This document shows positions 21,662 through 28,080 of a DNA stretch of 64,000 nt, in pieces (the stretch's first letter is position 1; every line of letters starts with the position of its first letter). Source of the stretch: a virus; IMG/VR virus record IMGVR_UViG_3300027782_000038; one strand, 5' to 3'. The notes beneath the pieces were generated by a model. It was given only the letters and a program-made list of their open reading frames with translations, was not told the DNA's origin and did no database searches. The position numbers were made by a program, and so were the translations under genes.

Positions 21662-21738
21662 GCCTCGGTGACGTAATTGGTAGCCGTGTTGGTCTTAGAA
21701 ACCAAATTCTGTGGGTTCGAGTCCCACCTGAGGCACCA
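21662..21738 (+). tRNA. tRNA-Leu(TAG), short variable loop
   Basis: Loop CTTAGAA, CCA. Confidence 0.87.
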
Positions 21739-22205: not shown

Positions 22206-22281
22206 TCCCCAGTAGCTCAGTCGGTAGAGCAAAACACTGTTAATGTTTGGGTCATTGGTTCAAGTCCAGTCTGGGGAGCCA
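22206..22281 (+). tRNA. tRNA-Asn(GTT)
   Basis: Loop CTGTTAA, CCA. Confidence 0.9.
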
Positions 22282-22302: not shown

Positions 22303-22500
22303 ATGAAAGCAGTTTTGTCTAGTGTTATATCAGTATTGGCACTTACTGGATGTGTAGTAACAGATCCATATTATGTTCAACCTGTGCCAATATATGTTCA
22401 ACCTAGACCTGTGTATATCGTTCCGCAAGTTCGTTGTTATTATATGCAACAATGGAATGGTTATAAAAGACAATATCAAACTGTTCATATTTGTCGTTAA
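22303..22500 (+). CDS. Small lipoprotein
   Basis: Signal peptide with LTGC lipobox. Confidence 0.7.
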   Translation: MKAVLSSVISVLALTGCVVTDPYYVQPVPIYVQPRPVYIVPQVRCYYMQQWNGYKRQYQTVHICR

Positions 22501-22511
22501 GAAGTAAATAT

Positions 22512-22585
22512 GCGAGATTAGTTTAATGGTAAAACTCCTTCCTTCCAAGTAGGTGTCATCAGTTCGATTCTGATATCTCGCTCCA
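22512..22585 (+). tRNA. tRNA-Gly(TCC)
   Basis: Loop CTTCCAA, U73, CCA. Confidence 0.88.
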
Positions 22586-22606
22586 CTTAATTTATGGAGA
22601 TTTAAT

Positions 22607-22918
22607 ATGGAAATTATTGCTTTAAAATTAATTACAGGTGAAGATGTTTTAGGTGAACTTGAATCTGAAACAGAACTTGTTGTAGTATTATCTAATCCAG
22701 TTGGTATCGCTGTCGTTCGTGGTAAAGACGGTACACCAAATATCGGATTCTCGCCGTTCCCTATTCATGCGGAACAAAAAAAAGACAACTCAATTGTTTT
22801 CTTAAATAAACACGTTGTTTATCATTATATACCAGCTGAAGATTTTATTACAAATTACAAACAAATCTTTGGTTCAGGTATCGTAGTTCCACCCCAAAAA
22901 CAGATTATTACAGGTTAA
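22607..22918 (+). CDS. Conserved Sm-like hypothetical protein
   Basis: LKLITGEDVLG...YKQIFGSGIVVP. Confidence 0.6.
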   Translation: MEIIALKLITGEDVLGELESETELVVVLSNPVGIAVVRGKDGTPNIGFSPFPIHAEQKKDNSIVFLNKHVVYHYIPAEDFITNYKQIFGSGIVVPPQKQIITG

Positions 22919-24216
22919 TGAGCAAATATTATACAAACGTTCAATGTTTCGGTAACAGTATTCTTTACCGAGGCATTATAGACGGTAAACGTGTTAAACA
23001 GAGAATTGATTATTCTCCATCACTTTATCTCCCATCAAGAAAGAATCCACAGGGAAAATTCAAATCACTAACTGGTCTTCCATTAGATCAAAAAGAATTT
23101 GATGATATTCGTGCAGCCAGAGATTTCATCAAGCAATTTGATGGTCTTCCTGGTGCACCTGTCATCTATGGTCAAAATCGTTTTGAGTATGCTTATATTG
23201 CCGATAACAATAAAGGTATGGTTGATTACGATCAGGATAAAATTCTTATCGGTGTAGTTGATATTGAGGTTGGTTCAGAGAATGGTTTTCCTGATCCATA
23301 CCTTGCAAACGAACCAATCACAGCCATTGGCATTAAGTATCTCAATGGTGAAATGGTTGTATTTGGTTGCGGTGATTATGAGAAGAAAGGTACCGAGATT
23401 TACGTCAAATGTAAAGATGAATGGACACTATGCAAAAAGTTTCTAGAATTATGGCAAAAGAAATGTCCAGATATCATCACAGGATGGAACACAAAGTTCT
23501 TTGATATTCCATATCTCATCAATCGTTTTCGTAAGATTCTTGGTGAAGATGATGCTAAGAAATTATCACCATGGAATTACATTGGTGAACGTAAAACCAC
23601 CATTAATGGTAAACAGTTAATTGCCTATGACATGATGGGTGTTGCATCACTTGATTATATTGAACTATACAAATGGTATGCTCCTGGTGGTAAGTCACAA
23701 GAATCATATCGTTTGGATAACATTGCTCAAAATGAATTGGGTGAAGGTAAAATTTCATATGATGAATATGATAACCTACATTCATTGTATCGTTTGAACT
23801 TTCAATTGTTTATTGAATATAACATCAAAGACGTTGAATTGATTGTTAAGTTGGAAGATAAATTAAAGTTACTTGAGATGGCTGTTACTTTGGCCTACGA
23901 TACTAAATCAAACTATGAGGATGTATTTGCACAGACCCGTATGTGGGACGCAATGACTTATTCTTATCTTTTAGAAAAGGATATCATTGTACCACCACGT
24001 ATCATCAAAGAAAAAGATGGTATGTTTGAAGGTGCATACGTTAAAGAAGTACAAGTTGGTGCTCATGATTGGGTTGCCAGCTTTGACCTAAATTCACTTT
24101 ACCCCCACCTTATGATGCAATATTCCATAAGTCCTGAAAATCTTGTGGAAAGAAGTTATATTGAAGATAGAAAACAAAAATTGATCGAGGAGTTAAAGTT
24201 GAGAAATACTAAATAA
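22918..24216 (+). CDS. gp43: DNA polymerase gp43, fragment 1 (exonuclease plus motif A)
   Basis: DIEV, GWN..FDIPY, YNIKDV, SFDLNSLYPH. Confidence 0.93.
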   Translation: MSKYYTNVQCFGNSILYRGIIDGKRVKQRIDYSPSLYLPSRKNPQGKFKSLTGLPLDQKEFDDIRAARDFIKQFDGLPGAPVIYGQNRFEYAYIADNNKGMVDYDQDKILIGVVDIEVGSENGFPDPYLANEPITAIGIKYLNGEMVVFGCGDYEKKGTEIYVKCKDEWTLCKKFLELWQKKCPDIITGWNTKFFDIPYLINRFRKILGEDDAKKLSPWNYIGERKTTINGKQLIAYDMMGVASLDYIELYKWYAPGGKSQESYRLDNIAQNELGEGKISYDEYDNLHSLYRLNFQLFIEYNIKDVELIVKLEDKLKLLEMAVTLAYDTKSNYEDVFAQTRMWDAMTYSYLLEKDIIVPPRIIKEKDGMFEGAYVKEVQVGAHDWVASFDLNSLYPHLMMQYSISPENLVERSYIEDRKQKLIEELKLRNTK

Positions 24217-24245
24217 GTAGATGTGGTTACTTATTAGGAGAATCA

Positions 24246-24779
24246 ATGAAATACAATATTACCAAAGATAAACTCTATGAATTGTTTATTACCAAGAATA
24301 TGAGAAGGAGTGAGGTTGCCGAATATTTTGGTTGTTCGGATGCCAACATTAAAAAATACCTACAAAAATTTGCCATCAAGAAGCCTTTTGATTTAGAATG
24401 TAAGAATAAAGAACGAAAGGCCTTGTTGAATTGCTTACATTGTAATAATGAATATGAAACACAAAAGTTTCGGACTGAAAGTGATAAGTATGATTCAAAA
24501 TATTGTAGTTATTCCTGTGCTCAAAAAAGTAGATATTTGGGTGGCGACCACAAACGTAGAATCAGAAATGAAATTGCTGCAAGGCGTAGAGCAAGAATTC
24601 GTAACCAAACACCAAAATTGAGTAAAGAAGAAAAGAAAAAGTTACAAGAATATTATTTGATTTGTCCTAAAGGACATGAAGTGGATCACATACAAGCAAT
24701 TGCAAAAGGTGGTTTACATCATCCTGATAACTTACAGATATTGACTATGAATGAGAATAGAAAAAAGTGGTGTAAATAA
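24246..24779 (+). mobile_element. HNH endonuclease inserted in gp43
   Basis: EVDHIQAIAKGGLHHPDNLQ; ACTAAATA at 24207; AGGAG RBS. Confidence 0.88.
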
Positions 24780-25105
24780 TGTTTCGTAATGTAAAAGAAT
24801 TAACAACCGAAGAACTACAAAAAGAAATTCAGGCCATAGAATTATTTGAACAAGAAATTGGTAAAGTCAATGTTGAGAATATGTTGAACAAATCTATTGA
24901 TACTTCTTTTCTTGGTCCAATGAAATGCACCATCACACCTAACGGCCAGATGTTTAGAACCGACCATCAAGGTTTCTTACCAAGAATGATGGAAGAAATG
25001 TATGAAGATCGTAAGAAATTTAAAAAGTTGATGCTCAAGGCTCAACAAGAGTATGAGTTAGTTTTAGCGGAGATTGAAAAAAGAAGAGGTTTGCAAGAAA
25101 AATAA
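24779..25105 (+). CDS. gp43: DNA polymerase gp43, fragment 2 (palm linker plus first finger helix)
   Basis: TITPNGQMF..GFLPRMMEEMYEDRKKFKKLML. Confidence 0.85.
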   Translation: MFRNVKELTTEELQKEIQAIELFEQEIGKVNVENMLNKSIDTSFLGPMKCTITPNGQMFRTDHQGFLPRMMEEMYEDRKKFKKLMLKAQQEYELVLAEIEKRRGLQEK

Positions 25106-25140
25106 TACTAAATAGAGCATGGTCTAAAAAAGGATGATAA

Positions 25141-25917
25141 ATGCCCAATCAATTTAGTGTTATAACAAAAGAAATAGAATCTAAATTAAATGAAATAGAA
25201 AGTATGTTGAAAAGTGGATATAGTGTGGGTGAAATTCAAAAAAAATTGATAAAATATAGTTATAGTGGTATATACAATTGTATTCAAAAGAATGGTTTAT
25301 CCAAATATGTTTCCACTAAAAACATAGGAAAAAGCAGAACATATAAGAAAATGTTAGATGATTATGATAATAACCATGAATTAAATTTTGAAACATTAAA
25401 TCAGTTATATAATGTTGATAAAAAAGATTTATATGAAATTGCTAAAATGTTTGGAGTTAGTCCTTCTGGTGTATTATATCGTATGAGAAAATTGGGTTTA
25501 CAGACCCGAAATAAATCGGAAGCTTCTGAAATCCTTTATATGAAAAAACCTGAACTGAGGGAAACTCATCGTAAAAATGCAAATGAAGGTAAAACAGGAA
25601 TATTCAAAAAAGGAAATAATTATTCAAACACTTGGATAGAAATAGCATTTAGGGAATACTGTGAACTACATAATATACAATTTCAACCACAATTTCAAAT
25701 AACAAAAGATACTCATAGATATGATTTTTTAATTGGCAAAAACATCTTAGTTGAACTTGATGGAACATATTGGCACAACAAGCCAAAACAAAAAGAGAAA
25801 GATGTATTACAGGAAGAATATGCAATAAACAACGGTTTTGTTGTATTGAGGATTACCGATAAACAAATAAAAGAAACAAAAGGTGAATGTTTTGAAATCA
25901 TTAAACGATATGTCTGA
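25141..25917 (+). mobile_element. DUF559/Vsr-like endonuclease with HTH, inserted in gp43
   Basis: RYDF...VELDGTYWH...KD...GFVVLRI; ACTAAATA at 25107. Confidence 0.82.
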
Positions 25918-26996
25918 TTCCGAATTGATTAGTTATAAAAATGAACTGGAAAGGAGAGTTGCAAGATATAATAATTTGCAACTTGCGAAAAAGGTGTCAC
26001 TTTAACTCCGCTTACGGTGCTTTGGGTAGTCAGTACTTTCGTTTTTATGATCTGCGTATGGCACTTGGTGTCACTTCTGCTGGCCAACTTTCCATTAGGT
26101 GGATTGAGTCTAAAATTAACAATTGGATGAATAAAATCATTGGATCTAAAGATGTAGATTATGTTATTGCATCTGATACAGATTCCATTTATCTTCGTAT
26201 GGGTGAATTGGTTGACAAGTTTATCAAAGATACATCCGATAAACAAAAAGTAATCTCACTCATGGATAAAATCTGTGAAGAAAAGATTCAACCATTTATT
26301 GATAAGTCTTATGTTGAGTTAGCTGATTACGTTCATGCATATGATCAAAAGATGCAGATGAAGCGTGAAGGACTATCAGACAAAGGTATTTGGACTGCCA
26401 AGAAACGTTATATTCTAAACGTGTATAATAATGAAGGTGTTCAGTATGCAGAACCTAAGATGAAAGTCATGGGTCTTGAAATGGTCAAATCTTCAACACC
26501 AGCTTCTATTCGTGAAAAGATGAAAGAGTCTATTGGTATTATGTTACGTGGTACTGAACAAGATATTCATAAATTCATTGCTGACTTTAGACAAGAATTT
26601 AAAAAGTTACCTGCTGAAGAAATTTCTTTTCCACGTGGACTGAATGGCTTAGCTAAATACTCAGATGCAGTATCATTGTATAAACTTGGTACACCTATTC
26701 ATGTGAAAGGTGCCATTCTCTATAACAATTATTTGAAACAAAACAATCTTACTAAAAAGTATCCACTCATCCAAGAGGGAGAAAAGGTTAAGTTTACCTA
26801 TTTGAAACTACCAAACCATTTTAAAGATATGGTAATTTCATACCCAAGTAGACTTCCTAAAGAATTAGGCCTTGACAAGTACATAGATTATGATGTACAA
26901 TTTGATAAGGCCTTCTTGGAACCAATCAAAGTCATTCTTAATTGTTTGGGTTGGACAACTGAAAAGGTAAACTCACTGGAAGATTTCTTCAAATAA
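25892..26996 (+). CDS. gp43: DNA polymerase gp43, fragment 3 (motifs B and C, thumb); needs a +1 shift at 26000-26005
   Basis: 0 frame ..YNNLQLAKKVSL* continues in +1 frame as NSAYG..DTDS..KKRY; C-terminal clamp-binding SLEDFF. Confidence 0.85.
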
Positions 26997-27018
26997 ATTA
27001 TTTTGATTAAGGTAAATT

Positions 27019-28080
27019 ATGAGTATTCTTGAAAAAATTAAAAAGAACAGCAGTATAAAAGATTCGGCAATTTTATCCAAATCAAAATTCTTTACTGATA
27101 AAGATATGATTCCGACTTCTGTGCCAATTATTAATGTGGCACTAAGTGGTAGATTGGACGGAGGTTTAACACCTGGCCTTACAATGTGGGCTGGTCCATC
27201 AAAACACTTTAAGACAGCATTTAGTTTATTAATGGCCAAATCATATTTGGACAAATATCCAGATGCTGCTCTTTTGTTTTATGATAGTGAATTTGGTACA
27301 CCACAGTCTTACTTCGACACATTTAATATTGATACTGATCGTGTTCTACATACACCCCTTACTGATATTGAACAATTGAAGTCTGATATTATGCAACAAT
27401 TATCCAATGTTACCCGTGGTGATCACCTTATCATTCTTGTTGATTCAATTGGTAACTTAGCATCAAAGAAAGAAGTTGATGATGCTTTAGAAGGTAAAAC
27501 TGTTGCTGATATGACTAGAGCGAAAGCAGTTAAGTCATTATTCAGAATGGTCACACCACATTTATCAATCAAAGACATTCCAATGGTTGTTGTCAATCAT
27601 ACATACAAAGAAATTGGTATGTTCCCGAAAGATATTGTTGGTGGTGGCACAGGTTCGTATTATTCAGCTGATAACATCTTCATTCTTGGTCGACAACAAG
27701 AAAAAGAAGGTACTGAAATTGTTGGTTATAACTTTATTATTAATGTGGAAAAATCTAGATATGTTAAAGAAAAATCTAAAATACCTGTTTCTGTATCTTT
27801 CACTGGTGGCATTAGTCGGTGGTCTGGTTTACTTGATCTTGCACTTGAATCAGGAAATGTTATTAAACCATCAAACGGATGGTATAGCAAGGTCGACCTT
27901 GAAACTGGGGAAGTAGAAGAAAAGAAGTATCGTGAAAAAGATACAGACACTAAAGAATTTTGGATGTCAATTATCACAAGTAAAACCTTCCGTGATTTTG
28001 TAGAAACAAAGTATAAAGTTGCTTCTACTGAAATTATGCAGGGTGGTGAAGAAAACTTATTTGGAGATATGGAATGTTAA
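27019..28080 (+). CDS. uvsX: UvsX RecA-like recombinase
   Basis: AGPSKHFKT, YDSEFG, DSIGNLAS. Confidence 0.96.
   Translation: MSILEKIKKNSSIKDSAILSKSKFFTDKDMIPTSVPIINVALSGRLDGGLTPGLTMWAGPSKHFKTAFSLLMAKSYLDKYPDAALLFYDSEFGTPQSYFDTFNIDTDRVLHTPLTDIEQLKSDIMQQLSNVTRGDHLIILVDSIGNLASKKEVDDALEGKTVADMTRAKAVKSLFRMVTPHLSIKDIPMVVVNHTYKEIGMFPKDIVGGGTGSYYSADNIFILGRQQEKEGTEIVGYNFIINVEKSRYVKEKSKIPVSVSFTGGISRWSGLLDLALESGNVIKPSNGWYSKVDLETGEVEEKKYREKDTDTKEFWMSIITSKTFRDFVETKYKVASTEIMQGGEENLFGDMEC

Follow-up and report, generated by a model that had tools for sequence, protein, structure and literature searches.

The only well-studied cassette that joins a nuclease gene to a translational recoding site is that of phage T4, in which the MobA cassette splits the topoisomerase into genes 39 and 60 and comprises a C-terminal tail, an N-terminal tail, a re-coded stretch and a 50-nucleotide (nt) bypass (bioRxiv 10.1101/2022.08.31.505936; PMC5009743). 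The gene 60 bypass has been reported to shield the DNA from MobA and to be kept after nuclease loss, MobA is sometimes replaced by Vsr-like or GIY-YIG genes, and the bypass cassette was called unique by the authors (bioRxiv 10.1101/2022.08.31.505936; PMC5009743). Its origin and purpose are debated. In phage Aeh1 a nuclease gene separates the two halves of NrdA, and the tails that these halves carry are essential if the enzyme is to be active and to form the tetramer and the holoenzyme, not for binding of the halves (PMC3045599). A further reference point is I-Bth0305I, the prototype of the EDxHD homing endonucleases, which has a footprint of ~60 bp and tolerates most single substitutions (PMC3239194). 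Here, we describe the DNA polymerase gene, gp43, of a freshwater T4-like phage, found in a stretch of 64,000 nt (IMG/VR virus record IMGVR_UViG_3300027782_000038, hereafter the window), where it is cut into three separately made proteins by two unrelated free-standing nuclease genes.

RESULTS

Layout of the split polymerase gene

As listed in Table 1, the open reading frame (ORF) list and the junction DNA place the gp43 pieces in the order A, HNH gene, B, EDxHD/Vsr-like (DUF559) nuclease gene, and C. All three pieces matched DNA_pol_B of Pfam, with DNA_pol_B_exo1 as an additional match on A, and the native part of B consists of a beta-hairpin and the first finger helix. The junctions are tight: a spacer of 29 nt, which contains the ribosome-binding site AGGAG, separates A from the HNH gene, the ATG of B overlaps the HNH stop codon as TAATG, 35 nt lie between B and the DUF559-like ORF, and the 3' end of the latter is overlapped by the first ORF of C (ATGTCTGA), for which TTG 25892 and GTG 25883 are alternative starts. 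A single uninterrupted ORF spans both break points in 74 relatives. Based on a profile of the native stretch in intact relatives, break 1 lies between native columns 37 and 38, ~20 residues past motif A, and break 2 at the tip of the fingers. An earlier note on this DNA, made from the letters alone, had described gp43 pieces parted by an HNH and a DUF559-like nuclease gene, with spacers of at most ~35 nt and neither intron nor intein. Its coordinates (22918-26996) were right, the spacers agree, and the Rfam and Pfam searches described below likewise gave no match to an intron or to a Hint domain. Its third piece, taken for one ORF, instead consists of two ORFs in different frames, and a +1 shift at CTT TAA C is needed to join them.

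Table 1. Features of the split gp43 locus, with positions in the window
Feature	Position	Strand	Description
gp43 fragment A, 432 residues	22918-24216	+	N-terminal and exonuclease domains, palm start with motif A (SFDLNSLYPH)
CTE1, C-terminal tail of A, residues 411-432	24148-24213	+	ERSYIEDRKQKLIEELKLRNTK; from profile alignment
HNH homing endonuclease gene, free-standing, 177 residues	24246-24779	+	PHROG HNH families, E 2e-12; weak Pfam HNH match
gp43 fragment B, 108 residues	24779-25105	+	27-residue head, 66 native residues, tail of ~15 residues
NTE1, N-terminal tail of B	24779-24859	+	MFRNVKELTTEELQKEIQAIELFEQEI; 27 added residues, absent from intact gp43
CTE2, C-terminal tail of B	25058-25102	+	LVLAEIEKRRGLQEK; extends first finger helix beyond native tip
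EDxHD/Vsr-like (DUF559) homing endonuclease gene, free-standing, 258 residues	25141-25917	+	N-terminal helix-turn-helix-like modules
Fragment C, first ORF, 31 codons from conserved ATG	25910-26005	+	Ends ...QLAKKVSL, then TAA (26003-26005)
Invariant 32-nt block with +1 site	25977-26008	+	AGGTG 25992-25996, 3-nt spacer, CTT 26000-26002, TAA 26003-26005, C 26006
Fragment C, second ORF, 330 residues from NSAYGALG	26004-26996	+	Rest of motif B, palm with motif C, thumb

The HNH cassette and the tails at the breaks

Copies of the HNH gene with 77-95% identity are present in 20 contigs, in each case at break 1, and the gp43 of these contigs is only 63-90% identical. When the segments were compared separately, the HNH gene was 88-95% and the tails were 74-100% identical, and the first 300 residues of A only 65-90%, with the A tail of two related loci (numbered here with the letter L), L013 and L106, as an exception at 56%. 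Since the HNH gene and the tails are more alike than the gp43 backgrounds in which they reside, this cassette (cassette 1) is mobile and the tails travel with it. The split can also occur with little or nothing left of the nuclease. The gp43 of L111-L113 (2739-5504) is distant, with 42% identity in A, and is split at break 1, where 33 residues of HNH are left; it keeps a recognisably homologous B head (MWKDVRKMSREEIAEELDALK...) despite the loss of HNH, and in L143-L145 A and B are adjacent without any HNH.

To which extent the breaks carry added sequence was read from the alignment to intact gp43. CTE1 consists of a strongly diverged 14-residue native helix and ~8 added residues, and CTE2 contributes ~10-15 added residues with the family consensus YEN-VLxExEKRG(L/I). 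The head of C is mostly the native second finger helix; its score against intact homologs was reached by 0 of 5000 shuffles. The earlier note had proposed that both breaks carry matching helical tags that would act as complementary docking helices. The alignment confirmed that extensions exist, with fewer added residues than supposed (~8 in A, 27 in the B head, ~10-15 in the B tail), and both break-1 tails and the B tail are indeed absent from intact homologs, but the C head is mostly native. The match between the breaks did not hold up: among composition-matched shuffles, 4884 of 5000 scored as high as tail against tail (p 0.98) and 2007 of 5000 as high as head against head (p 0.40), thus the similarity is not above composition. 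What stands of the proposal are two unrelated nucleases, the lack of an intron or intein, and conserved, predicted helical extensions that intact homologs do not have; what falls is the match of the tags between the breaks. We also compared the tail and head of each break as diverged direct duplicates of a native segment. At break 2, 11 of 2000 shuffles reached the DNA local alignment score and 711 of 5000 the protein score, and at break 1 there was no signal (210 of 2000 for DNA, 3513 of 5000 for protein).

The helical character of the tags was supported by AlphaFold 2 (AF2), and this character is the trait that the tags of the two breaks share. The model of B (mean predicted local distance difference test score 82) shows a helix at residues 10-29 in the head, a beta-hairpin at 50-60 and a long helix at 66-107, the latter being the finger helix that continues straight into the tail; at break 2, much of what had been called a tag is the native finger-helix pair. 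In the model of A alone, the tail forms a helix at 412-430 with moderate confidence, and the palm part at 363-409 has low confidence, in line with this domain being incomplete. A complex prediction with A 399-432 and B 1-30 as alignments scored 0.12 against a mark of 0.32, in a run without controls that is evidence neither way.

The reading that competes best with a functional role of these extensions is that they are passive by-products of stop and start placement, and that the fragments join through native polymerase interfaces alone. This would be in line with the native finger helices at break 2, which already form an antiparallel pair and to which the essentially native C head belongs, with the binding of Aeh1 NrdA halves without tails (PMC3045599), and with the absence of a common motif in the tags of the two breaks. 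However, the ratio of nonsynonymous to synonymous substitution rates (dN/dS) is 0.23 for CTE1 and 0.27 for NTE1, as low as in the adjoining native core, and the break-1 tails are conserved in at least 17 contigs with their length and helical character kept; the tails are under purifying selection. Also, tails persist after nuclease loss (L111-113, L130, L132 and L143), even in the gp43 that is only 42% identical. We consider passive tails unlikely on these grounds.

Several side observations were made around break 1. Alleles with an intact HNH cassette all read QY[S/C]ISPEN right before the tail (24112-24140), with QYSISPEN in 16 of 17, and alleles without the cassette read QYNISPET, which may reflect a co-conversion tract or a change in the HNH target. 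Between the HNH gene and B, L096 (4531-5572), L094, L097, L100, L102 and L040 have 100-1040 nt of additional DNA. A weak hairpin (-6.6 kcal/mol, z -1.55) lies at 24214-24233, before the HNH start.

A +1 site in motif B at the edge of the second cassette

The canonical motif B is KxxxNSxYG, and in the window its NSAYG part is reached only via a +1 shift at CTT TAA C (26000-26006). The motif is restored only by skipping one base in CTT-T-AAC, after which AAC 26004-26006 is read. The site conforms to the rules described for release factor 2 (RF2) frameshifting (PMC5009743), with CUU_U, a stop followed by C, and a Shine-Dalgarno-like AGGUG 3 nt upstream. No conserved RNA structure was found after the shift site (-4.5 kcal/mol, no covariation), and none of the 24 phage tRNAs has a four-base anticodon able to read CTTT. 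As a side observation, a phage tRNA-Leu(TAG) at 21662-21738 would read the CUU shift codon and a tRNA-Asn(GTT) at 22206-22281 the first +1 codon.

Instead of being joined by a shift, the two ORFs of C could be translated separately, the short one giving a peptide of 31-40 residues and the long one using its own start, so that four chains would make up the polymerase and its motif B lysine would be provided in trans. Gene callers do annotate the two ORFs separately in related contigs, and the window has a +1-frame ATG at 25941. However, no start codon in the +1 frame upstream of NSAYG is conserved, L132, L133 and L135 have a stop there and weak alternative starts only, a catalytic helix would be severed by a cut between KKVSL and NSAYG, and all three RF2 shift signals are present. 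Four chains therefore appear improbable to us.

The 32-nt block around the site (...GCGAAAAAGGTGTC[A/T]CTTTAACTC) is identical in the window, L129, L130/131/134, L132, L133, L135, L143, L144 and L145. A pattern search for the shifted version had yielded seven IMG/VR stretches with five distinct sequences, to which look-ups of B-like proteins added three contigs. Altogether at least 11 contigs, which come from different samples, have the block; their gp43 is 48-97% identical to that of the window, and the flanks of the block vary at most of the third codon positions. In the nine codons before the shift, synonymous diversity is 0.155, compared to 0.46-0.71 in the rest of the same sequences and 0.771 for the same nine codons in 80 relatives that lack the shift. 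Among 100 related loci, the 99 without the second cassette (cassette 2) are in frame and the one with it is shifted; the best 80 relatives all read ...TCN CTN AAY TCN... in frame, and so do the HNH-only loci. An error of sequencing or assembly, or decay of the gene through a recent mutation that inactivates the polymerase, could account for a single extra T within a short T run, but hardly for the same extra base in an identical block in so many contigs with such divergent flanks, nor for a native motif B that is kept by both frames, and the neighbouring genes in the window, uvsX and gp41, are intact, so the frame break is not general sequence noise. Judged from these sequences, the frame break is no sequencing error, and we regard error or decay as very improbable.

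The 31 codons before the site share 74-97% identity between contigs with the shift, but only 48-58% with other relatives, even where the downstream gp43 is closer. For example, L095 is 88-91% identical after the site and 52% before it, and L129 is 97% identical before and 70-75% after it. Since the upstream codons follow the cassette and the downstream codons follow the host gene, the shift site is the 3' edge of cassette 2, which is thus mobile like cassette 1, and the +1 shift was found only with the head region of this cassette. By its sequence, the conserved +1 site that comes with cassette 2 is of the RF2 type, and it lies within a catalytic motif of a replicative polymerase.

The nuclease of cassette 2 matched Pfam DUF559 (E 9e-6) and, with a two-sequence profile, PDB 3R3P, the catalytic domain of I-Bth0305I (E 8e-6), and residues E205, D207, H212 and D221 are invariant. 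Because of these matches and residues, it is assigned to the EDxHD/Vsr-like homing endonucleases, as a predicted member. Relatives with 55-71% identity are located at the same site in L083/L133, L135, L144 and L145. The nuclease gene has been reduced to its last ~15 codons in L130/131/134, is absent from L132 and is broken in L143, and all of these loci retain the split and the shift. A profile scan of metagenomes with the nuclease alignment, which gave poor patterns, showed distant C-terminal domains only among the matches listed.

Rejoining of the pieces by splicing, through a cryptic intron or a split intein, is just as improbable as error or decay: although nucleases in polymerase genes usually lie within introns or inteins, Vsr-like nucleases occur between split-intein halves in 'fractured genes' (PMC2677866), and 43B of Aeromonas phage 25 has a group I intron, an Rfam search of 22500-27500 (E up to 1) found no intron and, as sole match, a tRNA (22512-22582), the spacers of 29 and 35 nt are too short for a group I or II core round the nuclease ORFs, no gp43 piece matched the intein/Hint families of Pfam, and the tails of 8-27 residues are far below the length of the intein halves that would flank a nuclease.

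Other split forms and relatives

Stand-alone B-like proteins of 104-107 residues, with both head and tail, form at least nine protein clusters with 59-89% identity, and the contexts that were fetched are three-piece genes. Break 2 is a hot spot at which different contents are found, namely the EDxHD nuclease with the shift, a GIY-YIG nuclease with a 9-nt insert, or a 2-oxoglutarate (2OG)-Fe(II) oxygenase gene. In the GIY-YIG sister cassette, a GIY-YIG-like nuclease of 234 residues replaces the EDxHD one, the +1 site is absent, and a CTE2-type tail is present. It was found in L140, L141 (1232-1249) and L142, and independently in L147 (3891-3925, minus strand). Motif B reads ...NSAYGALG-TAG-TTA-GGT-SQYF in this cassette, with an in-frame TAG between two GGT codons (GGT TAG TTA GGT). 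The 9-nt insert is conserved in two architectures, with flanks that differ at synonymous sites, and it looks like either a readthrough site or a short stop-hop in which, as in gene 60, UAG comes right after the Gly take-off codon. The oxygenase gene lies between B and C in L146 (437-2365), another three-piece gp43, which has no frameshift or recoding and carries a 16-residue HNH remnant before B.

A differently placed split was found in L105 (1655-5991), where three gp43 pieces are arranged as A1, an HNH gene of 275 residues, A2, an HNH gene of 186 residues, and a fused B-C. A1 (142 residues) ends just past the DIEV motif of Exo I, and A2 has 353 residues. The tail of A1 (GDGQYANIP) and the head of A2 (IEIKLSDIGQYNND) look like diverged copies of one native strand.

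A megablast of the region against isolated phages gave no match, and no close relatives of either nuclease were found in isolates. The best isolate matches were cyanophages and Pelagibacter phage HTVC008M, with 46-60% amino-acid identity, and IMG/VR contains many relatives with up to 85% identity. A partial B-like protein (86% identity) is labelled at NCBI as derived from a Candidatus Fonsibacter metagenome-assembled genome. This label may hint at a freshwater SAR11 host, which would fit the presence of HTVC008M among the closest isolates.

DISCUSSION

The best explanation of the locus, and in our view the probable one, is that gp43 has been invaded by two cassettes, is recoded by a +1 shift and works as an assembly of three chains. 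Cassette 1 (~24148-24859) lies ~20 codons past motif A and provides a new C-terminal helix and stop for A, the HNH gene, and the start codon and 27-residue helix of B. Cassette 2 (~25058-26003) lies at the finger tip, with a helical extension and stop for B, the EDxHD/Vsr-like nuclease gene, the start codon of C and its re-coded first 31 codons, its 3' edge being the one-base insertion before NSAYG. The frame would be restored by an RF2-type slip of the Leu-tRNA from CUU to UUU at the weak UAA-C stop, aided by the upstream Shine-Dalgarno-like AGGUG, and the product would carry the native KKVSL-NSAYG, with VSLNSAYGALGSQYFR as junction peptide. The three chains (432, 108 and ~361 residues) would then assemble non-covalently via native interfaces, in particular that of the antiparallel finger helices at break 2, and the cassette-derived tails probably aid this assembly, as they do for Aeh1 NrdA.

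Some points weigh against parts of this scenario. Because the halves of Aeh1 NrdA bind without their tails, 'docking' is perhaps the wrong picture of what the tails do, and any direct contact between the break-1 tails is hypothetical. AGGTG codes for a conserved Lys-Val, so its conservation partly reflects the protein sequence. Also, UAA is read by both release factors, and the stop may therefore be stronger than the UGA of prfB.

The one-base insertion could serve as self-immunity, by breaking the nuclease target in the highly conserved DNA of motif B while the +1 shift keeps the protein intact, and recoding would then be a recurrent mobile answer to the problem of how to invade essential genes. 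We hold this idea to be quite possible rather than probable. Three interruptions of motif B accompany nucleases at break 2, namely the one-base shift, the 9-nt GGT-TAG-TTA-GGT insert, and the group I intron of Aeromonas phage 25. An insertion rather than silent changes would be used because EDxHD nucleases tolerate most single substitutions (PMC3239194), and the tolerance of I-Bth0305I fits, by analogy, the idea that only an insertion could immunise this DNA. If true, the T4 gene 60 bypass would be joined by the shift as a second example and by the 9-nt insert as a third, and it becomes a testable question whether the purpose of recoding inserts is to keep the nuclease of their own cassette from cutting conserved DNA.

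Nuclease-split genes with cassette-derived tails are already known, and the finding of tags alone would only add new members. What is new is a replicative polymerase in three chains, one of them a mini-subunit of 108 residues, in a lineage of at least nine protein clusters, and a nuclease cassette whose 3' edge forms a conserved, putative RF2-type +1 site in a catalytic motif. Literature searches turned up neither this frameshift nor a gp43 in three pieces, the JMB papers of Petrov and Karam not being covered.

The nuclease of cassette 2 resembles I-Bth0305I (PDB 3R3P) in its C-terminal Vsr-like domain with E/D/H/D residues, its phage origin and its target in a replication or recombination gene, but the N-terminal DNA-binding parts are unlike. 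The shift site shares its signals with that of prfB (PMC5009743): in both, an internal Shine-Dalgarno-like sequence lies 3 nt before CUU_U, the in-frame stop has a C after it, and the first ORF is short and yields a product of no use by itself. It differs in that the stop of prfB is UGA, whereas that in the window is UAA, in a phage polymerase gene and on a mobile nuclease cassette, and there is no obvious RF2 feedback since the stop is not UGA.

Free-standing Vsr-like or GIY-YIG nucleases between the halves of replication genes are known from the 'fractured genes' of marine metagenomes (Dassa et al. 2009, PMC2677866), in which the nuclease ORF and the downstream half likewise overlap and the nuclease may be lost. 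The halves of those genes carry split inteins, through which the protein is spliced, whereas the window has no intein, and PMC2677866 mentions only one intein-less case. The same enzyme as in the window is split at the finger tip, corresponding to break 2, in 43A/43B of Aeromonas phages 25, 31 and 44RR (Petrov, Karam et al.; PMC2988022; NC_008208). In phage 25, 43A ends at about native column 104 with a short tail, and 43B has an annotated group I intron right after the NSLYGAL of motif B; as in the window, a nuclease gene lies between the halves and the motif B DNA is interrupted just downstream. However, the Aeromonas gene has two pieces, a seg-like (GIY-YIG) nuclease, an intron and no break past motif A, whereas that of the window has three pieces and a one-base shift.

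The nrdA-a/mobE/nrdA-b arrangement of Aeh1 (Friedrich 2007; Crona 2011, PMC3045599) is likewise a nuclease fracture without intron or intein, with tails on both halves that arose with the insertion, and mobE is, like the nuclease of cassette 1, of the HNH type. There, two pieces and no recoding are found and the role of the tails has been shown; the window has three pieces and a putative recoding site, and its tails would play a corresponding part. With a host gene that is contiguous in 74 relatives, a nuclease between the pieces, and tails inherited from the cassettes (the C head being mostly native), gp43 in the window belongs, by its architecture, with such genes in pieces.

T4 mobA with the gene 60 bypass is the closest parallel. 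As presented in PMC5009743, which cites Bonocora et al. 2011, T4 39/mobA/60 is an essential replication gene split by a free-standing nuclease, as is gp43 here. Both cassettes bring a C-terminal tail upstream, and an N-terminal tail and a re-coded homologous stretch downstream; in both, the nuclease gene ends inside the downstream ORF and the recoding site follows slightly downstream, at the 3' edge of the cassette; and in both, split and recoding outlast the nuclease, which can be swapped for one of another family. The differences lie in the host gene and nuclease, topoisomerase and the HNH protein MobA in T4 against DNA polymerase and an EDxHD/Vsr-like nuclease in the window, and in the recoding itself, a 50-nt hop with tails of ~44 residues in T4 against a one-base RF2-type +1 shift with tails of ~10-27 residues. 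A coding gap of 50 nt, with GGA as matched take-off and landing codons, is not present in gp43 of the window. Cassette 2 would thus work like the mobA/gene 60 type without being a member of it, because it carries a one-base insertion instead of such a gap, and it would constitute a second, simpler nuclease-plus-recoding system.

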